Part shown: piece after piece, positions 4,963 through 25,279 of the stretch
Position numbering within the stretch: the first letter of the stretch is position 1
How the letters are laid out: the number at the start of each line of letters is the position of its first letter
DNA from: a virus
Taxonomy: Duplodnaviria > Caudoviricetes
Virus record (IMG/VR): IMGVR_UViG_3300027683_000020
Location: 1 to 25,287 of that record
DNA: 25,287 nucleotides
Reading direction: 5' to 3' (one strand)
Made by a program: the position numbers and the translations under genes
Notes under the pieces: generated by a model
The model's input: the letters and a program-made list of their open reading frames with translations, nothing else
The model's database searches: none
Told to the model about the DNA's origin: nothing

Positions 4963-7900
4963 ATGGCTTCTGAAGAACAACTAAATAATCAAAAAGAATT
5001 CAATAGTGCTTTAGCAGACGCCCAAGAATTTATAGGGCTAATAACATCTCGAACTAGTGATTTAGTTGACGCTTTTAGAAGACTAAACAACAGAAGCAGA
5101 GATGTTACCAGAGATCAATCTGAGGCTTTAAAGATTTTAAAATCTATAAACACTGCAGCTCGTAATTTAACTAGTGAATATTCTTCTTTAAAAGAAATTA
5201 CTAATAAAATTAAAGAAGCTAAAAAAGATCAAATTAAATTAGATAATACTATATTATCATTAGAACAAAAATTAGAAGATAGTCAAAAAAGCAGAATAGA
5301 AGCTTTTCAAAAAGGTCAATCTGAGATAAATAAAAGAGAACAAGTATATGCTCGATTAGTTGAAAAATCTTCAAAAGAATCTGTAGAAGCTGCCAATCAA
5401 ATTATTTCTTTAAGAGATGAAATAAGCAAAAAACAAAATGCTTATAGTGAGCTTGAAAAGAATATTGATAAAAAAAGTTATGAAGAAAAGAAAAAGAAAG
5501 AAGCCCAATTATTAGCTGCCAAAAAATTAGCCCTAGATGAATTAAATCAAGCCCAAACTATCTCAAACAAAAAAAGTAGAAGGGAAGCTGAAGAAAGTGC
5601 CGCTCGAAAATTAACAGCTTTAAAAGAAGAAGAAAAGATACTTAAAAACTCTTATACAGCTGAAGAAAAAAGATTTGATGCCGCTAGAGAAGTTATAAAA
5701 GAAAAACAAAATGAACTTCAAATAAAAGAATCTTTAGCTGATCAAGAAACTAATACCTTAATAGCAGCCCAGACAAAATTAAATTTATCAAAAGATGAAT
5801 TTGGTCAATTATCTAGAAATTTATCAATTCAAGAAAAACAATACTTACAGCTTCTAGAAGCTAAAGGAGAACATGAAAAAATACTTAAATTTTTAGAAGA
5901 ACAAGAGGAAAAAACAGCTAAAACTTTAAAAGAACAAGAAGAAAAACAAAATAGAATAAATAAAAGTTTAGGTTTATTTAATCTTACTTTAGGAGCAGCT
6001 AGTGGTCTTTTAGAAGGTTTAGGTCTTAAAGGAGCTTCTATAGCTTTAGGATTTGAAGAAGGTAAAAAAGCCGCTGAAGAAATGGCTAGGAAGATTGAAA
6101 GTGGGGAGGAATCAACTGGAGTACTTGGTAAAAATATTAAAGTATTAGGAGCGGGTATTGCTGCTACATTTAAAGGTATAGCTAGTGATATTAAAAAAGC
6201 TTTATCATTTACAGCTTTAGTAGCAGGAGTAAGTAAATTATTTGGAGGACTTGTTAGAAACATAGCTTCAATGATTGGGAAAGGATTAAAAGGTGCTTTT
6301 AATGTCCTTATTAGTCCCGCTAAACAAGTAGTAAGTGAAATTGGAGGTTTATTTTCTGAAGGGATTGATTATATTAAAAATTCTTTCTTTAGTGTAAAAG
6401 GATTTATGGATTCTTTCAAAGAAGGTGAAAGTCTAATGAAAGAATTATCTTTAGCTACTGAAAAAATAGCTACAGATTTAGGTGTTTCAACTAAAGAAGC
6501 TCAAGGATTAACCAATCAAGTAGCTAAATTTAGTGGTGAAATGGGTGCTTTCCCTGAAGTATTAGCCGCAAATATGGTTGAACTTAACAAAGCATTTGGC
6601 ACCACAATGGAATTCTCAGATGCTACAGCCAGATCGTATAATAGACTTATAGAACGTGCTGGATTTGCAACTGAAGAAGCAGCTGAGTTTGTTAAACTTT
6701 CTCAACTACGAGGTGAAAGTGTCAATGACACTTTAAAAGGTTATGAAGATGAGATAATGTATTTAAAAGCCGTCAACAATTCAGCTGTATCTCAAAAAGA
6801 AGTTTTACAAGAAATAGCTAAAGCTAGTTCTGCTACAAGATTAACATTTAGAGGTCAAGGTAAGAATTTAGCAGAAGCTGCCTTCCAAGCTAAATCTTTA
6901 GGTTTAGAAATGAGTAAATTAGAAGATATAGGTGGTAGTTTACTCAATTTTGAAGATTCTATAGCTAAAGAAATGGAAGCTGAATTGCTTATTGGTAGAG
7001 ATTTAAATCTTGAAAGAGCCAGACAAGCTGCCTTACAGGGTGACTCAGCTACTTTAGCTAAAGAATTAGCTAAAAATATAGGATCAGCAGCTGAATTTGG
7101 TAAAAAGAATGTTATTCAACAAGAAGCTTTAGCAGCAGCTGTTGGTATGACTCGTGATGAGTTAGCTAAAACATTAGAAACCCAAGAATTATTAGCAGGG
7201 ACAGGCCTTTCAGATATGAACCAGGCTCAAGCAGAATATAATAAGATGCTTGAAGAGACTGGAGATGCTGAAAAGGCCGCTGCTAAATTTAGACAAAAAT
7301 ATGGTAATGAAGCCTTATCACAACAGGTAGCTAAAGTAGCTTATGCTAAACAGGATGAACTTCGCCAAAGACAATTAGTAGCTACTCAAATGGAGATGGC
7401 TAAAGCTATGTTACCTGTAGCTCAAGCTTTTAGAAGAATACAACAAATTGTTCAAACTTTAAGAAAAGAATTAATAGAAAAAATACAGCCTTTCTTGAAA
7501 GCATTTGGGGGGTTAGTTGGACAGGGTGGAAAAAGTTTTGAAGAAATGGCTAAAGGTCCTGTTGGAAAATTAGGTGAAAAGTTAAATGATATAGGTTTAA
7601 AACTTGTTGAATTTTTTAAGATACATGGGCCTGAAATAAAAAAGATATTTTCACAAATATTTGATGTGTTTGGGGCTATTTACTCTAAAGTTGGAGAAGT
7701 AATTGGTGAACTCTTTAGTATGGAAGATGCTAATAAAGGAGCTTCAGGAGTACTTGGAGGCATGTCTGATATTTTAAGTGGAGTAGTTGAATATATTAAA
7801 AATATAGATGCTAAAAAATTAGCTGAGGATATTAAAGGTTTTGTAGAAAAAATAAAAGGAATTTCTGATAAGGTAAAAGAAACAATAGATAAAGTTGATA

Positions 7901-10900
7901 AGTTTATTCAAAATAACCCAACATTAATTAAATTGTTAGGTGGGGGGGCTTTAGCTATAACTTTAAGTAATAAAGTAGCTCCTGAACTTACTAAAGCTGT
8001 TTTAGGTGCTGGTAGTAGCTTACTTAAAATGGCTGGAAGTAAAGCTGTAGATTTAGGTAAAACTCTTGGAAATAATATTAGTTCAAAATTAGGTTTTGGG
8101 AAAATATTTGGTATGACCAAATCTGATAAAGAAAACTTAGGTACTTCAGCCAGCAATCCTATGTATGTTGAAGTAACTAACGCTGGAGATATTGGGGGAG
8201 GTGCTGGAGCAGCTGGTGAAGGTTTAACTGATATAGTAGGTAAAATGGGAGGAAGGAAAGCTGGGGTTGGGGGTGGGTTTAGAGGTGGGGTTAAGGGAGC
8301 CTTATCTTATGCTAGAGATGCCTTTAAAGGAGGAAGAGCAGGGAAGGTAGGTAGAGCTAGATTAATTAGAGCTGCTAAAGGATTAGTAACAGGTAAAGGA
8401 CCTTCATTTGTTGGAGGAGCCGCTAAAGCTAGTAAAGCTGCCTCTACAGCTGCTCAAGCTGGTAAAGCAGTTTCTACAGCGGCCCGAGTAGGTAAAGTAG
8501 CTTCTACAGGCTTAAAATTAGCCAAAGGAGCTGCGGGTGGAATTGGTAAAGTAGCTTCTACCGGCTTAAAATTAGCCAAAGGAGCTGCGGGTGGAATTGG
8601 AAGTTTGCTTGGAGGTTTAGCTTTAGATTACGCAGCTAATAAAAAGAAAAATGAAGCTGCTGAAAAACGAGCTTTAGCTGCCCAAGCTACTACTGAAGAA
8701 GAACGTCAAAAACTCTTAAAAGAAGCTAGGAAGGCTGACACAACAGGCAAATTAGCTTCTATAGGAAGTTCAGCAGCTACTGGAGCGGGTATAGGAGCTA
8801 CAATAGGTAGTGTTGTTCCTGGGGTTGGTAATGTTATAGGAGGAGCTGTAGGAGGAGTAATTGGTGGTGGGATTGGTGTGGTTAAAGAATATGGTGATGA
8901 AATTAAAAAAGGATTAGGAGATGCTTTTACATCAGTTTCTAAAAAATCATCTGAAGTTTGGTCTTCAGTAAAAACTACAGGAGAAAATGTTTGGGGGGGA
9001 ATCACAGAAAAAGCTTCAGGATATTGGGATACTATCTCAGGTAAAGCAACAGACTCTTGGAATTCTGTAAAAGCAATAGGAGCGGATACTTGGAATTCTA
9101 TTACAGAAACAGCCAATGGAGCTTGGGAAGGTATAAAAGGATTTGGGTCAGGGATATGGGGCTCAATTAAAAGTGAAGGTGAATCTATCTGGGGAGGTAT
9201 AACTTCATCAGCTGATACTGCTTGGGAAGGTATAAAAGGAAAAGGTAAAGAAATTTGGAGTTCAATTAAAACTAAAGGTAAAGAAATTTGGGGTTCAATT
9301 GAAAATATCGCTAAAGCCCCTATTGATAAAATCAAATCTACCTTCTCAAATATATTCAACCTCGACTCAGGAATAATAGGTAAAACTAAAGACATATTTA
9401 AAAATTTACTTCCTGACTCTGTGGTAAGTATTATGACCAGTTTAGGTATATTAGAAGAAGAAAAGAAACCAACTCCTCCACCTAAACCCCAAAAGGTAAA
9501 AGATGGTTCTACAGTCTCAAACAAAGGACCGTTTACTATATCTGATAAATTTGGTAATATAGCCATTACTCATCCTCAAGATAAACTCGTAGTATCCCCG
9601 AATATTTCATATGTCAATGATGGGATATCATCCCCATCAAGAAATCAAGTCTTCCCTGTAAGTGAAGGATTCGGCAAATTAGATGTTAAAGTATCTCCTA
9701 AAGGAGTTATGGTTCAAAAGGTTAAGGATGGAGCTATTCCATCTGCCCCACTTTCTTATCAAGAAGTATTTGGTTCAACCTCTGCTACTCGTGTTATTAG
9801 TTCTAATGTTCTACGTGAATTAGGAATTCCTGGGGTGGATGATAAAAACTTTAAAAATCAATTTAGTTTAATAGCTCAAGGTAATACAAATCTTATACCC
9901 TCTTTAAGTGAAATGGGTAAAAGTAAAAAATTAACTCTTTTTACCCCATCCGGAACTGCTTTAGCTCAAGATTCTTTTATTGTAAAATATGCTGATGGAA
10001 AGACAAGCCAAATTTTAGATGAAGGTAATATTAAATTCCCTCAAGACTCATATCGTACCCAAGACTTAAAAGAAATATCAGCTTCTGGTAATGGTTTATT
10101 AGCTCTATCAAGAGCTCTTAATGAAGTTAAGCCTAAAGAAATAGAAATAGGTGGAGGAACTACTAAAACATTTTATCTCCCAGATCGATACAACATAGGA
10201 TTTAAACAAGAACGTCAAAGTTCTGCTATTAAATTTGATTCAGGTAAAATTAATGATTTATCTGAGATGTCTAATAGTTTAAATGATGCTTTATTATATT
10301 TAGCTGTAAATAGACAATCTATTCCTTTAGTTGAGGGTATTCCTACTACTATGCATAATATAAAAGTAGGTGGTGAGAGATATGAAGATCAATATAATTA
10401 CGCTAAAAATAAATATATTCCTTACACTATTTTAGGAAATACTAGAAATTTTATTCCTAAAGAAATGGGATATGGTAATGAAGCTTTAGCTGCTTCTAGT
10501 TTACCCCCCTATGATTTCTCAGGTGTATATGAGATTGTAAACAAAATTGAAAATAAAGTCCCTCAATTCAAAGACATTCGCACCCCAGAACATGGATCTA
10601 TAATTTCATTAGCTCAAAAAGCTTGGAAATTAATAATGGATTTATTTGTTCCTCAATATAAAGATAGAGCTTTAACCTTTATTGAAAAATATGTTTCTCC
10701 TAGTTTTTATGAAAAATTTAAGAATAATATAAATCCTAAAATAGGATCACCTATTCTTAAATTTGATGGTTTATTTAAAGATGTAAAAGTGTTAGCTGGG
10801 GAAGGTCCTCCTACGGCTAATCTCCAAAAAACAACCAGTCAGTACAGTGAAGGATTATCAGAAAGAATTTCTGATGGGGTTTTATTACCTAAAAAGAAAC

Positions 10901-11976
10901 ATATTCAACAAATTCAAGATGGTTCTTCATCAAAAGGACCATTCACAATAGCAGATCGTTTTGGTAATATAGCAGTTACCCACCCTAAAGATGGTATTGT
11001 TGTATCTCCTAACATTTCATATGTTAATGATGGAGTTACTGATAAAAAAGGACCAGTGTTTCCTATTAGTGAGAAATTTGGAGCTTTAGATGTTAAAGTC
11101 TCACCTAAAGGAGTTATGGTTCAAAAGATTAATGATGGAATTAGTAATAAAGAAATAGATAAAACTAAACAAGAAATTTGGGATAAGTACAAGGGAGAAA
11201 ATAAACGTGTTATACCTGGAAAGCCTGGGATTTATGCTTGGGATAGTATAAATGAAAAAATGTTCTTTATCAATGAAACAGTCAAATCTCCATCTCAGAT
11301 TACATTCGCTAATTCTGAAACTTTTCATAATTACGCTCGAGTTCCTGAACGTGAATTAATAGGTGTAAGAAGTGATATGGGGTTTGCTAATCCTGATAAA
11401 ATTAATCTTAACACATTAAAAAATCTTATCTATGAGGCTTTTGGAGCCTCAGAAGCAAATCCCGCTGGGGTTGGCCAAAAAGGAAATGAATCGACTTTAG
11501 ATTCAATTTTAGATCCTTTCCAACCTGATTTAATTAGGCAAACTATAAAAGGTTACTCTCCTTTATCTCCAACTAAAACTACTTACTTCCATACTCTTCC
11601 AAATAAAGAAGGATACAGACCACCAGATTTAATTAGTATTAGTCAATCAGTTAGTGAAGGTTTATCTTTAGAAGAAGCAACTATGCCTAAATTAGCTGAA
11701 GGAGGAGTAGTGTCTAAGCCAACTGTAGCTTTAATAGGTGAAGCAGGACCAGAGGCGGTTGTACCTCTTGACCAAATTGCCCAAGAATCCCCTCAAACTT
11801 CAACTACAATTGTTGAGTCAGATAATAGTGACCTTAAAAAAGAACTCCAAGAAATGAAGCAATTAATGGCGGGTTTGATATCTCAAATCCCATCTATAGC
11901 TAATCGCCCTATAACTGTAGAATTAAATGGAAATAAAGTTGGTCAAGCTTTAGGTCAAAATGCTTATAGAATGTAA
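4963..11976 (+). CDS. Tail tape measure protein (2337 aa)
   Basis: Long Lys/Glu/Ala coiled-coil N-terminus, LLNFEDSIAKEMEAELLIGRDLNLERAR core, Gly/Ala-rich hydrophobic stretches, Trp repeats with 11-aa spacing and C-terminal LAEGGVV..PTVALIGEAGPEAVVPL. Canonical position after the chaperones. Confidence 0.92.
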   Translation: MASEEQLNNQKEFNSALADAQEFIGLITSRTSDLVDAFRRLNNRSRDVTRDQSEALKILKSINTAARNLTSEYSSLKEITNKIKEAKKDQIKLDNTILSLEQKLEDSQKSRIEAFQKGQSEINKREQVYARLVEKSSKESVEAANQIISLRDEISKKQNAYSELEKNIDKKSYEEKKKKEAQLLAAKKLALDELNQAQTISNKKSRREAEESAARKLTALKEEEKILKNSYTAEEKRFDAAREVIKEKQNELQIKESLADQETNTLIAAQTKLNLSKDEFGQLSRNLSIQEKQYLQLLEAKGEHEKILKFLEEQEEKTAKTLKEQEEKQNRINKSLGLFNLTLGAASGLLEGLGLKGASIALGFEEGKKAAEEMARKIESGEESTGVLGKNIKVLGAGIAATFKGIASDIKKALSFTALVAGVSKLFGGLVRNIASMIGKGLKGAFNVLISPAKQVVSEIGGLFSEGIDYIKNSFFSVKGFMDSFKEGESLMKELSLATEKIATDLGVSTKEAQGLTNQVAKFSGEMGAFPEVLAANMVELNKAFGTTMEFSDATARSYNRLIERAGFATEEAAEFVKLSQLRGESVNDTLKGYEDEIMYLKAVNNSAVSQKEVLQEIAKASSATRLTFRGQGKNLAEAAFQAKSLGLEMSKLEDIGGSLLNFEDSIAKEMEAELLIGRDLNLERARQAALQGDSATLAKELAKNIGSAAEFGKKNVIQQEALAAAVGMTRDELAKTLETQELLAGTGLSDMNQAQAEYNKMLEETGDAEKAAAKFRQKYGNEALSQQVAKVAYAKQDELRQRQLVATQMEMAKAMLPVAQAFRRIQQIVQTLRKELIEKIQPFLKAFGGLVGQGGKSFEEMAKGPVGKLGEKLNDIGLKLVEFFKIHGPEIKKIFSQIFDVFGAIYSKVGEVIGELFSMEDANKGASGVLGGMSDILSGVVEYIKNIDAKKLAEDIKGFVEKIKGISDKVKETIDKVDKFIQNNPTLIKLLGGGALAITLSNKVAPELTKAVLGAGSSLLKMAGSKAVDLGKTLGNNISSKLGFGKIFGMTKSDKENLGTSASNPMYVEVTNAGDIGGGAGAAGEGLTDIVGKMGGRKAGVGGGFRGGVKGALSYARDAFKGGRAGKVGRARLIRAAKGLVTGKGPSFVGGAAKASKAASTAAQAGKAVSTAARVGKVASTGLKLAKGAAGGIGKVASTGLKLAKGAAGGIGSLLGGLALDYAANKKKNEAAEKRALAAQATTEEERQKLLKEARKADTTGKLASIGSSAATGAGIGATIGSVVPGVGNVIGGAVGGVIGGGIGVVKEYGDEIKKGLGDAFTSVSKKSSEVWSSVKTTGENVWGGITEKASGYWDTISGKATDSWNSVKAIGADTWNSITETANGAWEGIKGFGSGIWGSIKSEGESIWGGITSSADTAWEGIKGKGKEIWSSIKTKGKEIWGSIENIAKAPIDKIKSTFSNIFNLDSGIIGKTKDIFKNLLPDSVVSIMTSLGILEEEKKPTPPPKPQKVKDGSTVSNKGPFTISDKFGNIAITHPQDKLVVSPNISYVNDGISSPSRNQVFPVSEGFGKLDVKVSPKGVMVQKVKDGAIPSAPLSYQEVFGSTSATRVISSNVLRELGIPGVDDKNFKNQFSLIAQGNTNLIPSLSEMGKSKKLTLFTPSGTALAQDSFIVKYADGKTSQILDEGNIKFPQDSYRTQDLKEISASGNGLLALSRALNEVKPKEIEIGGGTTKTFYLPDRYNIGFKQERQSSAIKFDSGKINDLSEMSNSLNDALLYLAVNRQSIPLVEGIPTTMHNIKVGGERYEDQYNYAKNKYIPYTILGNTRNFIPKEMGYGNEALAASSLPPYDFSGVYEIVNKIENKVPQFKDIRTPEHGSIISLAQKAWKLIMDLFVPQYKDRALTFIEKYVSPSFYEKFKNNINPKIGSPILKFDGLFKDVKVLAGEGPPTANLQKTTSQYSEGLSERISDGVLLPKKKHIQQIQDGSSSKGPFTIADRFGNIAVTHPKDGIVVSPNISYVNDGVTDKKGPVFPISEKFGALDVKVSPKGVMVQKINDGISNKEIDKTKQEIWDKYKGENKRVIPGKPGIYAWDSINEKMFFINETVKSPSQITFANSETFHNYARVPERELIGVRSDMGFANPDKINLNTLKNLIYEAFGASEANPAGVGQKGNESTLDSILDPFQPDLIRQTIKGYSPLSPTKTTYFHTLPNKEGYRPPDLISISQSVSEGLSLEEATMPKLAEGGVVSKPTVALIGEAGPEAVVPLDQIAQESPQTSTTIVESDNSDLKKELQEMKQLMAGLISQIPSIANRPITVELNGNKVGQALGQNAYRM
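8491..8600 (+). repeat. 54-bp in-frame tandem duplication (GKVASTGLKLAKGAAGGI x2)
   Basis: Copies start at 8491 and 8545 and differ by one synonymous base (ACA/ACC). Confidence 0.95.
8947..9306 (+). repeat. Eleven 11-aa Trp-anchored tape measure repeats
   Basis: SSEVWSSVKTT GENVWGGITEK ASGYWDTISGK ATDSWNSVKAI GADTWNSITET ... GKEIWSSIKTK GKEIWGSIENI. Confidence 0.9.
9490..11139 (+). repeat. Dispersed duplication of an ~80-aa domain in the tape measure C-terminus (copies ~9490-9732 and ~10909-11139)
   Basis: KGPFTISDKFGNIAITHPQDKLVVSPNISYVNDG...LDVKVSPKGVMVQKVKDG versus KGPFTIADRFGNIAVTHPKDGIVVSPNISYVNDG...LDVKVSPKGVMVQKINDG. Confidence 0.92.
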
Positions 11977-17832: not shown

Positions 17833-18042
17833 ATGTCAACATTTCAAGAAATTAAACAAGCCGCGAAAGAATCAGCTCAAGAATCTTTAACTCAAGAAAT
17901 TAAAGTTCCACAATTAGAAATTGAAGAAGCTAAATATCTTTTAGCTTTAGTAGCTCGTTCTGATTTTAAAGGTCAAGATGTTCAAATTGTTTATAACATA
18001 GCTTTAAAATTACAAGAGACTGTAAAAACTTTAAATAACTAA
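17833..18042 (+). CDS. Small helical protein (69 aa), putative fibre chaperone/adaptor; start revised from 17779
   Basis: The ATG at 17833 removes the overlap with the previous gene and follows the promoter-like motif. Similar to the ORF at 22512. Confidence 0.7.
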   Translation: MSTFQEIKQAAKESAQESLTQEIKVPQLEIEEAKYLLALVARSDFKGQDVQIVYNIALKLQETVKTLNN

Positions 18043-18046
18043 TTAA

Positions 18047-20446
18047 ATGGCTGAGTGGAAAAAGGTAGTAGTATCAGGTTCTAATGCTGAGTTAAATAGA
18101 ATATTGGCTAGTGGAGCTATTACAGGAAGTAGTGCTATTAGTGCTAGTGGGAAAATTTACGCGGGAATAACAACAGCTAATAATTCAAATGTTGTAACTT
18201 ACAATACTTCCACTGGGGAGTTTTCTTATACTGGTTCATCTAATGTTGGAGGTACTGGAATTTTTAATAATAGAACAACTTATTATGACACAGCTAATAC
18301 TCTCCAAATAACTGGTTCTACTCTTCGTTCTTCCCTTTCATCTAGTGGACTTGGGACTTCTTCAGATAGTAATGGGGGATCTTCTAATATATATGCTCTT
18401 TTAGTTAGTGAATCTATATATTCTTTTAATCATAATGTAGGATTTCCTACAGCTAATGCTTGGAAAGAAAATTTAGTTGGTTCTTATTTTAATTCTTTTG
18501 ATGCTAATACTAATGTATCTGAAATATTAAGATTTATAGCTGGTTTATTAAGCCAATCAGCTCCATCTCCTTCTCCAAATACTAGAACTTTTAGTGGTAT
18601 ACTTTCTTTATCAAGTAGTTTTGCTACTACTAGTATTCAAGGCTTAACCCCTTCAGAATCAAGTAATAGTGATATCTTATATTTAAGAAGTAAAGGATTC
18701 GCCAACTCAGGATCTGCTAGCTTTCATTTACCTTATGTTTTAGGGAGAGTTTATAGTGGATCTGATTTTTCATTTAGCTATTCTAGTTCAGCTGGGGGAG
18801 CTTTATCTATCAGCTCTTCAAACGATCAACAACTATTTGGGTTAGGTGAAAAAACTTTTATAGCTACTCTTAGTTCTTCCATAGTATATAAATTTTTTAG
18901 CAGTTCTAATGAATCAACACCAACTGAAACTTCAACAGTTAATAGGAGTATTACTTTAACAGGGACAAACCCTTCAGGGAATGGAGGTTTTAATAAATTT
19001 AGCATCCCAACAGCCAACCCAGCTGTTATTCCTTCTCAATTCCAAGATGGTAAATTTACAGGATCTTTTATTTCATCATACAATCCTGTAACTTTTCCAG
19101 GCCCTAGTAATCCAACAATTTTACCTTCAAGTTCAACAGGTTGGTATCATTTTTCTCAAAGTATAACTTTATATACTGGTTCACAACTTTTAGGTCTTGT
19201 TCAAATATCAAATGATAGAGTATTTAGATCTGGTTATACTCAAAGTTCTTTCCCAACTAATACTATAACCCATATACCAACTGTAACTCAACTTACAGCC
19301 ATTTCTAGGTCTTTATCAGGAGCACCTTACTTAACTCAATCTTCATATCTTTATTTATGTACTTCTAGTGGTATTTTTAATCCTATGTACGCTACAGCTT
19401 CTCAGCTGTTTGTTTTAACAACTGGAAGTGCATTTCTTAATAGGACTAATGGTAATCATATTCTGGGTATAGATTCTGCAGGTAGAATTAATACTAATTT
19501 TATAGTTTACTCCAGTAGTGTTAGTACAACTGCTAAAGCTGTTAGCTCATATCCAAGTCAAAATGATATTTTAAGAGTTACAGCTTCTTTTGAATTACTT
19601 CCAACCGCAGGCGCTTCAGGATCTGCTCAAATAGCTTTTACAGGTGCTAATACATCTTCTTCCATTTCAGCCTCTACTTATAATAGACTTAATAATCTTA
19701 TAGCTAGTGGAGCCACTGCTACATATTTTACAGCTGGTACATTTGGTCAAGATGCTGCTTCAGGCACTATGGCTTTATATAACAGACCTCAAGGATATGA
19801 CCCAGGACTTTTAACAAGTACTAGTGAGTCATTTCAAGGTGAAACTTATCGTCTTCAAATAACTGATAAACTTCTTTCTGGTTCTTATGCTTTAGGTGAA
19901 ACTTTTGTTACTAATTCTTTTATAGTTAATAATCTAGGATCAAAAGATCTCCAAGTTAAACCTAGTTACTTAGTTTTCCCAGGAGGAACTTATAAGTATT
20001 GGTTACCTAATCCTGATAGTGGTCAACTTTATAAATACTATGCTAGAGCTTTTAAACGAGTAGCCGCAGCTTCGTCTTTAACTTTAACAGTTGGTCAAGC
20101 TTTAATTCCTTGGACCAGTTCAGCCAATGGTATAGCTGTTGGATTTATATTTTCTTCATCAGGAATACCTGCTTTAGCTACTCCTAGATTATATGATCCT
20201 GTAGATACCGCTGCTAATTTTATTGAAACCACAGCCAATGATAATTTTAAAAATCCATTTAATACAAGTATAAGTATTTATGGTAATACTGGTGCTACTT
20301 CTCCTGTAAGTAATGTTTATACATTACCTTTAAGATCAGCTGATGAAATGCGTTTAAATGGAGCTAATTATTTAGATTTTGTTTTATTAATTAGATATAA
20401 AGGAGATCCTGTTCCTGTTTCATCTTCTATACTAACCTTTAGTTAA
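18047..20446 (+). CDS. Ser/Thr-rich tail fibre-like virion protein (799 aa)
   Basis: The N-terminus MAEWKKVVVSGSNAELN is similar to that of the 22751 gene. Composition is Ser/Thr/Gly-rich and beta-like, and it lies in the tail module. Confidence 0.65.
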   Translation: MAEWKKVVVSGSNAELNRILASGAITGSSAISASGKIYAGITTANNSNVVTYNTSTGEFSYTGSSNVGGTGIFNNRTTYYDTANTLQITGSTLRSSLSSSGLGTSSDSNGGSSNIYALLVSESIYSFNHNVGFPTANAWKENLVGSYFNSFDANTNVSEILRFIAGLLSQSAPSPSPNTRTFSGILSLSSSFATTSIQGLTPSESSNSDILYLRSKGFANSGSASFHLPYVLGRVYSGSDFSFSYSSSAGGALSISSSNDQQLFGLGEKTFIATLSSSIVYKFFSSSNESTPTETSTVNRSITLTGTNPSGNGGFNKFSIPTANPAVIPSQFQDGKFTGSFISSYNPVTFPGPSNPTILPSSSTGWYHFSQSITLYTGSQLLGLVQISNDRVFRSGYTQSSFPTNTITHIPTVTQLTAISRSLSGAPYLTQSSYLYLCTSSGIFNPMYATASQLFVLTTGSAFLNRTNGNHILGIDSAGRINTNFIVYSSSVSTTAKAVSSYPSQNDILRVTASFELLPTAGASGSAQIAFTGANTSSSISASTYNRLNNLIASGATATYFTAGTFGQDAASGTMALYNRPQGYDPGLLTSTSESFQGETYRLQITDKLLSGSYALGETFVTNSFIVNNLGSKDLQVKPSYLVFPGGTYKYWLPNPDSGQLYKYYARAFKRVAAASSLTLTVGQALIPWTSSANGIAVGFIFSSSGIPALATPRLYDPVDTAANFIETTANDNFKNPFNTSISIYGNTGATSPVSNVYTLPLRSADEMRLNGANYLDFVLLIRYKGDPVPVSSSILTFS

Positions 20447-20460
20447 TAAATTTTTAAACT

Positions 20461-22491
20461 ATGCCAATAGATAAAATAAAAAAATCAAATAGGTTACTAG
20501 CCAGTAGAAGATATACTCAGGAATCACTTAGTGATAACCAAGAAGCATTTACTAGAGTATTAGATTTAAACTCTTCTGAGATTTATATCCAACAAAATGC
20601 TATCCCTACATCTTCCCTTCCATATTCAAGTAGTGGTCAAGATCAGCTTTTTGTAACCTCAGGAAGTGAAGATATTCTAAAATTTTGGTATAGAAAACCA
20701 TTAACTCCTTCTCAAAATGATTTTGGTGGTCTCACTGAAACTTATTTCTTTTTAGATCCTGAACCTGGGGCTGATGTTGACCCTCAAACAATTCAGGCTT
20801 CTCAACAAACTAACTTTATTTCTCCTAAATACTCAGCTCCTTCTTTAGCTAATGCTACAACAGAAGATATAACTACAGGTTATAATGTTGTTATTAGAGT
20901 TAATGGAGCTACTGTAGGGGGGGCTACCTATCAATTTGATTATAAAACAGGAGTACTTCAATTTTCTTCTAGTATTCCTACTGCGGGTAGTACAGTCACA
21001 GCTACAGCTTATCAATATGTTGGAAAAACCTTAGATAGTTTTATATCTTCAGGATCAGGAGGAGGAACAGGAGCAGGTTTTCCTTTTACAGGTTCAGCTT
21101 TAATAACTGGTTCACTTGTAGTAACAGGTTCACTTACAGTTAGCAGTAGCACAGGTATAACATTAGTTGGTGGAGGAAATCTTATAGGTACTTCAAGTTT
21201 TGCTCAATATGCTTCTACTGTTTCTATTACTGATAATGGTATATCTGCTCCCTTTCCTATACTTTTTGAAAGTACAACTAATAATATAAGTAAAGATGCT
21301 TCTGATCTAACTTATAACCCTTCTTCAAATAGGTTAGTACTTAATGGAAATATATCTGCTAGTGGATTCACAGGTTCATTATTTGGAACTTCTAGTTGGG
21401 CCTCTAATGCTACTAGCGCTTCATATGCTTTAAATTCTAGTAACGCCACTAGCGCTTCATACGCTTTAAGTTCTAGCTACGCTATGAGCTCTAGCTATGT
21501 TATGAGCTCTAGTTATGCTATGAGCTCTAGTTATGCTATGAGCTCTAGTTATGCTTTTAAAGCAGATAGTGCTAATACAGCTAATACAGCTTCATGGGCT
21601 TCTAATGTTACTATCACTGAACAAAGTACAAATGCTAATTTTTCTATACTTTTTACTGGTAATGATGCCCAAATAAATAGAGACATTAGTCCTCAATTTG
21701 TATATAACCCAGGGACGAACACAGTATTACTCCAAGGGATTATGTCTGCTAGTGGATTTTCAGGTTCATTATTGGGAACTTCTAGTTGGGCCTCTAATGC
21801 TACTAGCGCTTCACACGCTAGAAGCTCTAGTTATGCTATGAGCTCTAGTTACGCTATGAGCTCTAGTTATGCTTTTAATGCCACTAGCGCTTCATATGCT
21901 TTAAATTCTAGCAACGCCACTAGTGCTTCATATGCTTTAAATTCTAGTAACGCCACTAGCGCTTCATATACCTTAAGTTCTAGTTACGCTATGAGCTCTA
22001 GTTATGCTTTTAAAGCAGTTAGTGCTGATACAGCTTCATCTGTAGGTACCTTAAATCAAAATGTTATAATAAATGGTAATTTAACAGTTGATGGTACAGC
22101 CACTTATATTAATGTTGATAATTTATTAGTTGAAGATAAATTTATATTATTAAATAGTGGGGCCTTAGGAGCAGCAGGTGTAGCTAATGAAGGTGGTATT
22201 GTAGTTCAAACATCTTCTAGTTTAGATGGAGGAGTATCTACAGCTTATGGTACCGCTATATTTTATGACCAAACAACTAATAGATGGATGGTAGCTAAAA
22301 GCAGTTCAGTTGCTTTTAACGCTACTTCTATAACAGTAGGAGCTACAACAGACTACATAGTTACTGTTAGTGCTTCAAATGGAGCCCCAACAGGTACTCC
22401 TGTTAATTTTGGTACCGGGAATGATAATTATTCAGTTGGTCAAATGTATATTAGGACAGATGGAGACCGTGATATTTATATATATGCTTAA
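20461..22491 (+). CDS. Tail fibre-like protein with hexapeptide repeats (676 aa)
   Basis: YQFDYKTGVLQF domain, GFPFTGSALITGSL module, (A)MSSSY/ATSASY repeats and GNLTVDGTATYINVDNLLVEDKFILLN, a fibre-type motif. Confidence 0.75.
   Translation: MPIDKIKKSNRLLASRRYTQESLSDNQEAFTRVLDLNSSEIYIQQNAIPTSSLPYSSSGQDQLFVTSGSEDILKFWYRKPLTPSQNDFGGLTETYFFLDPEPGADVDPQTIQASQQTNFISPKYSAPSLANATTEDITTGYNVVIRVNGATVGGATYQFDYKTGVLQFSSSIPTAGSTVTATAYQYVGKTLDSFISSGSGGGTGAGFPFTGSALITGSLVVTGSLTVSSSTGITLVGGGNLIGTSSFAQYASTVSITDNGISAPFPILFESTTNNISKDASDLTYNPSSNRLVLNGNISASGFTGSLFGTSSWASNATSASYALNSSNATSASYALSSSYAMSSSYVMSSSYAMSSSYAMSSSYAFKADSANTANTASWASNVTITEQSTNANFSILFTGNDAQINRDISPQFVYNPGTNTVLLQGIMSASGFSGSLLGTSSWASNATSASHARSSSYAMSSSYAMSSSYAFNATSASYALNSSNATSASYALNSSNATSASYTLSSSYAMSSSYAFKAVSADTASSVGTLNQNVIINGNLTVDGTATYINVDNLLVEDKFILLNSGALGAAGVANEGGIVVQTSSSLDGGVSTAYGTAIFYDQTTNRWMVAKSSSVAFNATSITVGATTDYIVTVSASNGAPTGTPVNFGTGNDNYSVGQMYIRTDGDRDIYIYA
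21355..22014 (+). repeat. Two blocks of 18-bp coding tandem repeats inside a ~390-bp internal duplication
   Basis: GCTATGAGCTCTAGTTAT-type units at ~21463-21555 and mixed 18/36-bp units at ~21800-22010. Both blocks follow near-identical TCTGCTAGTGGATT...GGAACTTCTAGTTGGGCCTCTAATGCTACTAGCGCTTCA at 21355 and 21745. Confidence 0.92.
22472..22480 (+). promoter_or_regulatory. ATATTTATA motif inside the 3' end of the upstream gene
   Basis: 31 nt before the ATG at 22512. It could be a chance match because it lies in coding sequence. Confidence 0.4.
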
Positions 22492-22511: not shown

Positions 22512-22661
22512 ATGTTACAAGTAAGATTAGAACCTCAAGAAATACAATTTGCAATAGCAGCTATCCATAATGTACAAATTTATGGTAAAGATGCCCATAC
22601 AGTGTCAAACCTTTTAAGAAAATTTGAAGAAAAATTAGCTACAATACAAGAAGTAAAGTAA
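22512..22661 (+). CDS. Small helical protein (49 aa), paralogue of 17833..18042, missing from the ORF track
   Basis: MLQVRLEPQEIQFAIAAIHNVQIYGKDAHTVSNLLRKFEEKLATIQEVK* aligns without gaps to LEIEEAKYLLALVARSDFKGQDVQIVYNIALKLQE. Confidence 0.75.
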   Translation: MLQVRLEPQEIQFAIAAIHNVQIYGKDAHTVSNLLRKFEEKLATIQEVK

Positions 22662-22682
22662 AAACATATTATAGTGTTTATA

Positions 22683-22738
22683 CTATTGTTGGCCTGAAAG
22701 GGAAGTAGGCGATTTTAATTCGTATCTAACCACGATAG
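22683..22738 (+). ncRNA. Candidate structured cis-regulatory RNA (three-way junction with GAAA tetraloop) in the 5' leader of a fibre gene
   Basis: P1 CUAUUGU(U)GG/CCACGAUAG, P2 CCU-GAAA-GGG, P3 UAGGCGA/UCG(UA)UCUA. GC-rich intergenic island, no U-tail, ends 12 nt before the ATG. Confidence 0.5.
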
Positions 22739-22750
22739 AGAACCAGAAAC

Positions 22751-25279
22751 ATGCCAAGTTGGAGAAAAGTCATACTTTCCGGCAGTGACGCTGCCCTAAA
22801 TAGTTTAAATACTACATCAATAACAGCTTCTGTTGTTAGTGCTAGCCAATTTACTGGTTCTTTATTTGGTACTTCAAGTTGGGCTAATAATGTTATTAGT
22901 AGTTCCTTTGCAACTACTGCTTCATTTGGTCCTAATATTGGGAATACTAATTTAACCTTAACAGGTAATAGAATATTAACTTTTGGTAGTAATACTTTAA
23001 GATTTACCCATAATGGAGCTACAACCAATTTTAATAATGATGGAATTAATATATCAGGATCTCTTACATCCCAATATGCTTATATTTATGGGAAGCCTGC
23101 TACTCCTGGGGAGATTTATATATATGAGTCTCAGACTAATGGTAGCAGTTCAGTTCAATTAGTAGCGCCTAGTTCATTAACAAATGATGTTAGATTTATT
23201 CTCCCTTCGAGTACAGGATCAGGTGATAATTATGTTTTAAGGGATGATGGAGCAGGTACTTTGTCTTTTACTAATCAAGTACCAACAGCATCATTTGCGG
23301 TAACAGCTTCTTATGCAGCTACTGCTTCATTTGTTAGAAATGCTCAAACAGCTTCATTTTTACCTGTTGGGACTTATAACATCACTGCTTCATGGGCTCA
23401 GTCAGCATCCAATGCTATTAATGCTCAAACAGCTTCATTTTTACCTGTTGGGACTTATAATATAACTTCAAGTTGGGCTACTAATGCTGTTAGTGCTTCT
23501 TATGCTTTAACAGCTTCATATGCTGTTAATGCTAGTGCTGGGACTCTCCAAGAAGTAACAGAGCAGGGATCTAGTACAAATATTCCAATCACAGCCTCTA
23601 TAATTAGTGCTTCCTCATTTACTGGTTCTTTATTTGGTACTTCAAGTTGGGCTATATCAGCTTCAAGAGCTGTAAGTTCAAGCTATGCTTTAACAGCTTC
23701 TTTTGCTTTAAATGGAGGTGGTGGACTTTCAGGTAATCAATATGAAACAGTTTATTTTGAAAATACTAATGACCCTGCGGGAGCTACTTATGTAAATATT
23801 TATCCTCTTCAATCTGAAGGTTGGGGTTTTAAAGTAGGTAGAAATGAACCCACCCCCACTATTCCTAGTGGAGCTCATGTTTTAAAAGATAATAGAGAAT
23901 TATTTACTAATGCTAAAGTAGCAGTACAAGGTGAACCTTTTATCCTTTTAGGATTTGGACAAAAAAATGATGTCAGTTTAACAGCTACAGATAATTTTGA
24001 ACATCCTGGGATAGATGAATATGATGGGGGACTTATACCTGGGAGGGTTTATGGGGGAAGTTTAAAGTTAAGAAAAACTTTATATGGAATACAAGATGCT
24101 GATGGTAATACTAAGTTAGTCGCTGATGGGGGTTTTGTGGTTAAACCTTCCTCCCCAGGTTTTCTTGTAGGTCAAGGAGGTTATTATATATTTGAAAGTG
24201 CTTCAATGCAATTTAATGCTAGTGGAGCTTTAATTTCTCCTGTAACTAGTGCTAGTGTTAGATTAGGTTTAGCTACAGACAGTTCAAGTTTTACTATAGC
24301 TGTTGGTAAAAATAATTTACAAGATATTTTATTTATTTCTAGATCTGGGGCTGATGCTAGAATAGCAGTAGGAGGTAATTATAGAACTCCTAGAAATACC
24401 CTTGATATATCAGGCAGTTTAAGGGTTTTTACAAGTATAACCGCCTCAACTGTTAGTGCTAGTGGAGTTATATCAAGTAGCAATTTAAGTATAACAGGAT
24501 TCCCAAATGTCTCTGCTTCATTAGCTTCTTTATCTACTGGTGTAGGTACTTTACAACAAGTAACAGACGCTGGTAATACTACAACTAATCCTATTAGTTC
24601 TTCATTTGCTGGTGTAGGATTTTTTGGTACTGCTTCTTGGGCCATAAATGTTGTTAATGGGGGTGGTGGAGGAGGAGGTGGATCAGATTCAGCGTTCCTT
24701 AACCAATCTACAGCTGCTACTACGTGGTCTTTCGCCCATAATCTCGGTACTCAATACCCAGTCATAACAGTATATGATACTACAGGATTAGTCATTATTC
24801 CACAAGAAATTGACGGAGAAGATACTAACAACTTAAAAATATACTTCCCTACTTCCCAATCAGGTTATGCTACAGCTGTAGGTGGAACTTCAGCTTTAAC
24901 TTATTATAGCCAATCTTTAACTACAGCTTCTGTTAATCTTAATACAATTACCTTTACAAAAGGTGATGGTTCAACCTTCCCAATTACTGTTAATACAGGA
25001 AGTGGAGGGGGTGGTGGATCAGATTTTCCATACACTGGTTCAGCCATAATATCAGGTAGTTTAACAGTCACAGGAAGTGTTATCTCAACAGGTGGATTTA
25101 CAGGTTCTTTATTTGGGACATCAAGTTGGGCTACTAATGCTTTAACAGCATCATTCTTACCTGTTGGAACCTATAACATTACTGCTTCATGGGCCCAATC
25201 AGCTTCTAACGCTATCAACGCTAGAACAGCATCATTTTTACCTGTTGGAACTTATAGTGTAACAGCTTCATGGGCCTAA
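22751..25279 (+). CDS. Long mosaic tail fibre protein; apparent stop is suspect and the gene probably continues past the window
   Basis: MPSWRKVILSGSDAALN start, TASYA/TSSWA repeats, GTLQ(E/Q)VTxxG twice, TWSFAHNLGTQYPVITVYD domain and poly-Gly linkers. The terminal TAA replaces CAA of the repeat unit. Confidence 0.8.
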   Translation: MPSWRKVILSGSDAALNSLNTTSITASVVSASQFTGSLFGTSSWANNVISSSFATTASFGPNIGNTNLTLTGNRILTFGSNTLRFTHNGATTNFNNDGINISGSLTSQYAYIYGKPATPGEIYIYESQTNGSSSVQLVAPSSLTNDVRFILPSSTGSGDNYVLRDDGAGTLSFTNQVPTASFAVTASYAATASFVRNAQTASFLPVGTYNITASWAQSASNAINAQTASFLPVGTYNITSSWATNAVSASYALTASYAVNASAGTLQEVTEQGSSTNIPITASIISASSFTGSLFGTSSWAISASRAVSSSYALTASFALNGGGGLSGNQYETVYFENTNDPAGATYVNIYPLQSEGWGFKVGRNEPTPTIPSGAHVLKDNRELFTNAKVAVQGEPFILLGFGQKNDVSLTATDNFEHPGIDEYDGGLIPGRVYGGSLKLRKTLYGIQDADGNTKLVADGGFVVKPSSPGFLVGQGGYYIFESASMQFNASGALISPVTSASVRLGLATDSSSFTIAVGKNNLQDILFISRSGADARIAVGGNYRTPRNTLDISGSLRVFTSITASTVSASGVISSSNLSITGFPNVSASLASLSTGVGTLQQVTDAGNTTTNPISSSFAGVGFFGTASWAINVVNGGGGGGGGSDSAFLNQSTAATTWSFAHNLGTQYPVITVYDTTGLVIIPQEIDGEDTNNLKIYFPTSQSGYATAVGGTSALTYYSQSLTTASVNLNTITFTKGDGSTFPITVNTGSGGGGGSDFPYTGSAIISGSLTVTGSVISTGGFTGSLFGTSSWATNALTASFLPVGTYNITASWAQSASNAINARTASFLPVGTYSVTASWA
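23339..23490 (+). repeat. 81-bp (27-aa) tandem repeat NAQTASFLPVGTYNITASWAQSASNAI, first pair
   Basis: Copies start at 23339 and 23420. Confidence 0.9.

Follow-up and report, generated by a model that had tools for sequence, protein, structure and literature searches.

Structured RNAs at the initiation region of a single phage gene are known from bacteriophage T4. In the consulted part of PMC3014915, gene 32 and gene 43 are described as autogenously controlled by operators folding into a pseudoknot and a hairpin, respectively, alongside the sites bound by RegA. The same part covers the sequestering hairpins of T4 gene e and I-TevI, whose 5′ arm is cut off when transcription starts at a late promoter. 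Covariation analysis has also revealed candidate cis-regulatory RNAs immediately 5′ of phage genes, namely GP20-a (RF02991), GP20-b (RF03003) and the unnamed DNAVirus_X candidates (Fremin et al. 2023, consulted part of PMC10690425). Here we describe a conserved, structured cis-RNA with covarying helices that lies on the sense strand at a fixed position 5′ of one phage gene family. In its working it would be closest to the T4 gene 32 and gene 43 operators as presented in the consulted part of PMC3014915. Like these and the RegA sites, it places a structured RNA at the site of initiation for one phage gene, and an OFF logic is proposed for it. In contrast to the gene 32 and gene 43 operators, it forms a three-way junction instead of a pseudoknot or hairpin, its binders are candidates only, and the controlled gene codes for a virion fibre-like protein and not for a nucleic-acid-binding protein. 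With the gene e and I-TevI hairpins it would share an RNA structure limiting initiation of a late gene, but the presumed promoter motif is located 5′ of the complete fold, and invariance extends to the bases of the junction itself. The mode of discovery is closest to that of the GP20 motifs and the unnamed viral candidates, although gene and fold differ from those of GP20-a and GP20-b and there is no Rfam match. The motif strings are absent from the tables of PMC10690425 and no description of the motif was found in the literature compared, which comprised neither the alignment files of that paper nor the supplement of PMC5737381; the motif could thus be among the unnamed DNAVirus_X candidates. 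That the RNA represents a real class absent from Rfam is well supported by the data presented below.

The element was found in a 25,287-nt virus sequence, the whole of which is referred to as the window. Annotation of its open reading frames revealed sheath, tube, hub, tape-measure and baseplate genes, and the closest relative of the sheath protein is that of Flavobacterium phage vB_FspM_immuto (48.7%, full length). The tape-measure-like protein (positions 4963–11976; 2337 aa) is more than twice as long as its immuto counterpart. The module of genes starting with a WKK motif follows the baseplate genes in the window and precedes the sheath gene in immuto. It contains an MAEWKK structural gene of 799 aa (18047–20446, plus strand) and, behind it, a gene of 676 aa carrying SSSYAM repeats (both together 18047–22491), the C-terminus of the latter being similar to the end of the gene preceding the small ORFs in relatives. 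The RNA element is located in the spacer between a 49-aa ORF (22512–22661) and an ORF of 842 aa, both on the plus strand. According to the ORF list and its relatives, the latter (22751–25279) encodes a fibre-like protein beginning with MPSWRKVILSGS. Conservation among the relatives of this protein is limited to about 20 N-terminal residues, and the bodies differ completely beyond residue ~20. The best cultured match, immuto gp052, is annotated as 'putative tail fiber-like protein', and 10 of 24 relatives match PHROG tail-fibre families. Since the 842-aa protein itself matches only PHROG families labeled unknown or 'virion structural', the term fibre is used here on account of its family.

Folding and comparative alignment assigned a 56-nt three-way junction to positions 22683–22738 on the plus strand. 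The closing helix P1 consists of a 5′ strand (22683–22692) with seven base pairs, a bulged U22690 and two guanines, and its 3′ strand at 22730–22738; pairs 22683–22689/22732–22738 and 22691–22692/22730–22731 flank the bulge, and G-C/A-U as well as U-A/U-G exchanges occur in this helix. Hairpin P2 (CCU-GAAA-GGG; 22693–22702) begins with an invariant C-G pair and is variable in loop and length. It is connected by the linker AAG (22703–22705) to P3 (22706–22712/22720–22728), in which URG pairs with CYA, followed by a 2-nt bulge on the 3′ side, an R-U and a C-G pair and a variable hairpin. A single adenine (A22729), the end of the P3 segment (22706–22729), closes the junction, and 12 nt separate the element from the ATG at 22751. 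P1, P2, the AAG linker and P3 have the positions drawn by eye in the initial annotation, and its distance to the start codon was confirmed together with its description of a GC-rich island in an AT-rich spacer (41% GC compared with 24% in the remaining spacer and 33% in the window). As a single sequence, the 56-mer folded no better than shuffled controls (z −0.70), so the proof of the element is comparative. The covariance model built here gave the window copy, one of the 68 input rows of the model, a score of 61 bits.

For comparison of structures, 104 distinct leaders anchored on the protein start were collected, and 67 of them were aligned with the window copy. Pairing was maintained in 104/104 leaders at several positions: in P1, the three outer pairs adjoining the bulge and both inner pairs; in P2, the first two pairs; and in P3, two of the three pairs closest to the junction. 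Exchanges between pairs included A-U in 68 and G-C in 32 leaders, and the middle P3 pair was present as G-C in 78 and as A-U in 26. The inner P1 pairs GG/CC were replaced by GA/UC in 4/104 (G-C 100, A-U 4). The linkers AAG and A were invariant in all 104 leaders, although the parse was anchored on both, and L429, which escaped the parse, carries GAG in place of AAG. The P3 bulge comprised two nucleotides in 101/104 leaders, whereas lengths and loops of P2 and P3 varied freely. A GNRA tetraloop, noted in the initial annotation, was present in just 40/104 leaders and is dispensable. A loop containing GGCA recurs at the P2 tip of L339, L340 and L341 and at the P3 tip of L342, L365 and L380 and may constitute an additional binding site. 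With about 14 near-invariant bases in the junction and with free loops and helix lengths, the element shows a pattern that would be expected of a binding site.

In the 68-row alignment, 91.9% of the cells were paired, compared with 79.5% in shuffled alignments and 31–50% in slid registers. Two-sided changes were found at 14 of 19 pairs, a count that kinship inflates and for which the statistics do not correct. None of 500 shuffles matched four of the five covariation measures, and three matched the fifth. The covariation that had been suggested as a check was thus found beyond both kinds of control. Core pairs comprised 168 G-U and 2 A-C cells, which fits an RNA read from the sense strand and not a DNA cruciform. 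This bears on the proposal that the conserved unit is a site in the DNA serving the exchange or recombination of fibre genes. Fibre bodies that differ wholly beyond residue ~20 and endonuclease genes inserting beside the element would suit such a site, but duplex DNA does not account for the G-U excess, the immuto genome contains one copy, and no recombinase was matched among 18 scanned window ORFs. We regard this possibility, raised by the initial annotation, as extremely improbable.

Two mutually exclusive pairings had also been suggested for the window. The first, GCCU with AGGC, is possible with all four pairs in 64/104 leaders but showed no covariation, equaled shuffles on all measures and reached a predicted probability of at most 0.03 in the window. 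The second, AUAGUG with UACUAU, would sequester the 5′ strand of P1 and had a predicted probability of at most 0.02; helices of at least 6 bp between upstream sequence and P1 occurred in 38/104 leaders and in 26 shuffled ones, a slight excess. The concept of a cis-regulatory RNA therefore stands in so far as the element is conserved, covarying, uncatalogued and located in cis ahead of one fibre-like gene, while these two alternative folds found no support. We also considered pairing of P1 UUGGC with the Pro2 codon, which is CCA or CCG in 205/224 leaders, and rejected it as MA paralogues are equally biased (codon 2 GCA in 104/113). In the window, the junction competes with pairing to codons 7–10, and the probability of inner P1 ranges from 0.00 to 0.92 depending on the chosen boundaries; as a general feature this pairing was dismissed, for it recurs in 16/223 leaders.

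The Rfam 15 scan of the window yielded no match, in agreement with the initial annotation, in which the element was not recognized as a known riboswitch or ribozyme. Fifteen homologous loci gave 32 weak matches, all below gathering score and none recurring over the element. No terminator-like site covers the element and no U run follows P1 in the alignment, consistent with the earlier statement that it is not a terminator. A small self-cleaving ribozyme trimming the late transcript could be compact and rich in invariant bases, as is this junction. It is nevertheless very improbable, given that no Rfam ribozyme matched the window or the homologous loci and that a constant association with a single start codon is more readily explained by regulation. 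Furthermore, the hammerhead core is absent from the element.

The association with one gene family was examined from both sides. An 18-base pattern of the element matched 102 IMG/VR loci, nearly all of which continue with an MP(N/S)W(K/R)K gene. Three hits of a separate scan (L246, L247 and L280) were judged to be due to chance. A search by protein start returned 121 matches sampled from 9 of 64 collection parts, corresponding to an estimated ~930, and one of them had too little upstream DNA. Conservation upstream of homologous fibre genes, which the initial annotation had proposed to check, was evident: the element precedes 118 of 120 sampled genes, 117 found by pattern and L429 by the model (58 bits). 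The two MPxWKK loci that lack it, L360 and L420, resemble the upstream paralogue, and L360 shares a contig with the element-bearing L361. The MAxWKK paralogues, represented in the window by the MAEWKK gene, served as internal control, and the element was found in 0/119 usable loci. Conversely, 110 of 112 distinct viral copies retrieved by the element directly precede an MPxWKK gene, and the remaining two precede an endonuclease gene that is itself followed by an MPxWKK gene. The number of viral stretches with the motif in the collection is estimated at ~800–900, and the carriers are Immutovirus-like aquatic myophages. The 160-kb genome of cultured phage immuto contains a single copy, at 137891–137946 of NC_055915.1, ahead of gp052. 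The fibre is far less conserved than the RNA upstream of it.

Cellular genomes were searched as well. Seven pattern matches in GTDB genomes included three real elements, all located on short contigs and each followed by an MPxWKK gene; the other four were rejected because they lacked outer P1 and scored only 12–24 bits. L575, L579 and L581 carry both the element and the MPxWKK gene; these short contigs were assigned to MAGs labeled Pelagibacter, Bifidobacterium and Flavobacteriales but are probably binned phage DNA and so not host evidence. In 121 genomes of the order Flavobacteriales, many of them incomplete and each scored for 47 candidates, a strong model score was obtained on the known contig only. 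This phage-restricted distribution points to a phage product as binder.

The same data reduce the prospects of a site for a host protein, for instance a ribosomal protein at an rRNA-like junction that couples fibre synthesis to the translation state of the host. Junction geometry, with 0, 3 and 1 unpaired nucleotides and a bulge after three pairs, recalls the h20-21-22 junction of 16S rRNA with its S15 site, a putative topological likeness. S15-type ribosomal protein leaders presumably also share a small junction, conserved helix-internal pairs and a G-U beside the bulge. In addition, large Bacteroidetes lake phages encode bS21 in their late region, as stated in the consulted part of PMC9723584. 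Unlike ribosomal protein leaders, however, the element is followed by a phage structural gene and matched no Rfam leader at gathering score. In many leaders P3 does not reach the length needed for a second site at a distance of one turn, and the 120 other Flavobacteriales-order genomes gave no strong match at the above coverage. We therefore consider a host-protein site quite improbable.

The end of P1 lies close to the start codon, with a median distance of 11 nt and no more than 15 nt in 193/224 short leaders. The element thereby abuts the ribosome-binding region like operators of the T4 gene 32/43 type. According to predictions, the junction is marginal without ligand: its median stability was +1.7 kcal/mol relative to the best other ensemble, and the probability of inner P1 exceeded 0.5 in 74/223 leaders. 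Opening of the region from −15 to +18 was costlier in the junction state in 167/224 short leaders (median 6.8 compared with 4.5), a contrast that arises partly by construction because P1 overlaps the chosen footprint. Unconstrained short leaders were no harder to open than those of MA paralogues (4.6 and 4.8), and the window copy showed no predicted contrast between states (6.5 and 6.9), which counts against an off-switch. Hosts of Bacteroidetes phages are reported to disregard SD sequences (PMC7797042, consulted part, which together with that of PMC9723584 provided our background on these phages and hosts), and a reading based on SD occlusion is accordingly less certain for Flavobacterium hosts.

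A pronounced contrast was predicted for a group of long leaders. In 7 of 231 leaders, 114–128 nt separate the junction from the AUG, which makes them ~118 nt longer than the others. Here the junction is predicted to be 6–9 kcal/mol less stable than a competing fold (6–12 kcal/mol across the long leaders as a whole), and its core is nevertheless kept. In the competing fold, a U-rich strand containing CCAAC pairs with the 5′ side of P1, whereas in the junction state the same strand pairs with codons 3–6 around the start. The calculated opening cost was 6.2–11.0 with the junction and 2.7–4.7 otherwise, and this contrast was reached by 0/40 insert shuffles in five of the seven leaders and by 1/40 in two. 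Two more scans extended the group to 15 distinct members after exclusion of four loci (three incomplete, one unparsed). The CC of the strand was predicted to pair with the GG of P1 in 15/15 members when the junction is absent and with the Trp4 codon in 13/15 when it is formed, eight of the 15 having been found by a pattern that already contained the switch strand. Apart from the looser case L687, the platform belongs to one lineage (86% identity among six). The long-leader loci are L003:1491–1666, L011, L051, L072, L079, L429 and L717–L735. Their insert harbors a second hairpin in its middle, and its 3′ part looks like a portion of the element copied in inverted orientation; the complementarity could stem from an old duplication of this kind. 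A core that forms only transiently or when stabilized would correspond to a sensor architecture with an OFF platform.

On this basis we propose, as the likeliest of the readings considered here, that the element may act as a translational off-switch for the fibre-like gene, stabilized by a phage protein, a model for which we see the chances as evenly balanced. A late phage protein would bind the invariant junction and hold P1 shut, keeping ribosomes off the fibre start. In the long leaders, junction formation would release the switch strand for pairing over the start codon. The ligand may be unassembled fibre or a WKK-type N-terminal arm, or one of the small proteins of families A and B described below, the W/K-rich N-terminal arm of the fibre being a candidate binder. 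The outcome would be feedback on the supply of fibre during tail assembly. To our knowledge, there are few reports of feedback control acting on a virion fibre through RNA. A cultured phage-host pair with the motif exists in immuto and Flavobacterium sp. LMO8, and the variant with long leaders offers a ready on/off construct, so that ligand and logic are directly testable.

Instead of a protein, a small molecule or metal ion might turn fibre translation off, as in a phage-specific riboswitch. The ~14 near-invariant junction bases with free loops, the marginal fold and the predicted aptamer/anti-aptamer platform of the long-leader lineage would agree with this. Three-way-junction translational riboswitches for c-di-GMP, glutamine and purines likewise combine an invariant junction with free distal loops, and the competing fold predicted here for one lineage is a further likeness. 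In contrast to such riboswitches, the element has no sequence or model match to them and no cellular or metabolic context. It always stands ahead of one structural gene and never of a metabolic or transport gene; the downstream genes code for fibre-like proteins or inserted endonucleases and are not related to metabolites or ions. With no strong cellular copy in the searched genomes and no Rfam riboswitch match, this reading is unlikely in our judgment. A broader version, a phage-only riboswitch class whose junction aptamer senses a small molecule, an ion or fibre not yet assembled and thereby controls the receptor-binding fibre throughout an extensive aquatic Bacteroidota myophage lineage, with the full platform in one sub-lineage, appears doubtful, if somewhat less so.

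Upstream of the element, many leaders contain the motif TATTTAT, a putative late-promoter motif. It corresponds to the late promoter of T4 in reverse complement, and it was not found in the literature searched for it. TATTTAT was present within 45 nt upstream in 70/104 leaders, mostly 5–11 nt before P1. It also occurs within 100 nt of 8 of the 18 ORF starts in the window (757, 1041, 3794, 4937, 11985, 17261, 17808 and 22473) and, in relatives, ahead of the majority of MAxWKK and MPxWKK genes. Loss of a 5′ arm as in T4 gene e and I-TevI would not apply here, as TATTTAT ends at least 2 nt before P1 in all 70 cases. In the window, the variant TGTTTATA (22675–22682, plus strand) abuts P1, and its role is uncertain. 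A transcript starting at 22687 would lose P1, so the window copy may be read from the TATTTAT upstream of the 49-aa ORF (22473–22479, plus strand), a possible promoter for a transcript comprising ORF, RNA and fibre gene. TATTTAT was absent in 30/104 leaders, many of which both follow the stop codon of a small ORF within 6–9 nt and hold an SD-like AAGGAG inside the 3′ strand of P1. In L339, L344, L353, L372, L384 and similar loci, the small-ORF stop lies 6–9 nt before the P1 bulge and is accompanied by the SD-like AAGGAG. A terminating ribosome could open P1 in this group, i.e. by translational coupling.

A fold placed so close behind TATTTAT would open the transcript, and it might thus be a static structure that, without any switching, serves to stabilize the late transcript at its 5′ end, undergoes processing there, or aids ribosome loading. 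The equal spacing of inserted endonuclease genes behind the RNA and the window copy without contrast between states would be in line with this. However, none of the 119 MAxWKK leaders carries the element though many share TATTTAT, the long leaders keep the core despite its energetic disadvantage of 6–12 kcal/mol, and invariant pairs within short helices point to a partner. A purely static role therefore seems improbable to us, to the same degree as the phage-specific riboswitch.

Returning to the proposed protein-stabilized off-switch, two small proteins encoded nearby were considered as partners. The 49-aa ORF upstream of the element (22512–22661) represents family B and is predicted to fold into a helical hairpin (model pLDDT 88.7); its family has an invariant G and an invariant A. 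A small ORF of family A (17833–18042, plus strand; listed from ATG 17779) is its paralogue, with an hhalign probability of 92.6 (E 4.4e-7). Neither family exhibits a conserved basic patch. A fold search with the 49-aa model returned no match at E 0.001, and Atlas and homolog searches with the protein gave just hypothetical proteins or stray names. Within 900 nt upstream, 68 loci with enough flank contained family B in 34, family A in 60 and either in 65 cases. The 49-aa protein, named as possible partner in the initial annotation, is consequently a weak candidate as sole partner, its own family being present in half of the loci (34/68), although the family or its paralogue is present in 65/68. 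The two helical-hairpin families (17833–18042 and 22512–22661) travel with the WKK fibre genes and are perhaps fibre chaperones.

Finally, HNH or GIY-YIG/NUMOD genes (the GIY-YIG matches being weak) were found 13–22 nt behind the RNA in four distinct loci, all on the minus strand (L027:918–1442, L586:745–987, L648:264–986 and L084:2–259). In three of these insertions, the fibre gene resumes from a new start that is purine-rich and overlaps the stop codon of the endonuclease gene, and the L084 sequence ends before this point. These three new fibre starts lie far from the RNA, which counts against the off-switch. After insertion, control by the RNA could have been passed on by translational coupling, or lost. 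Two of the inserted endonucleases begin with MPNY, as if the first codons of the fibre gene had been taken over.
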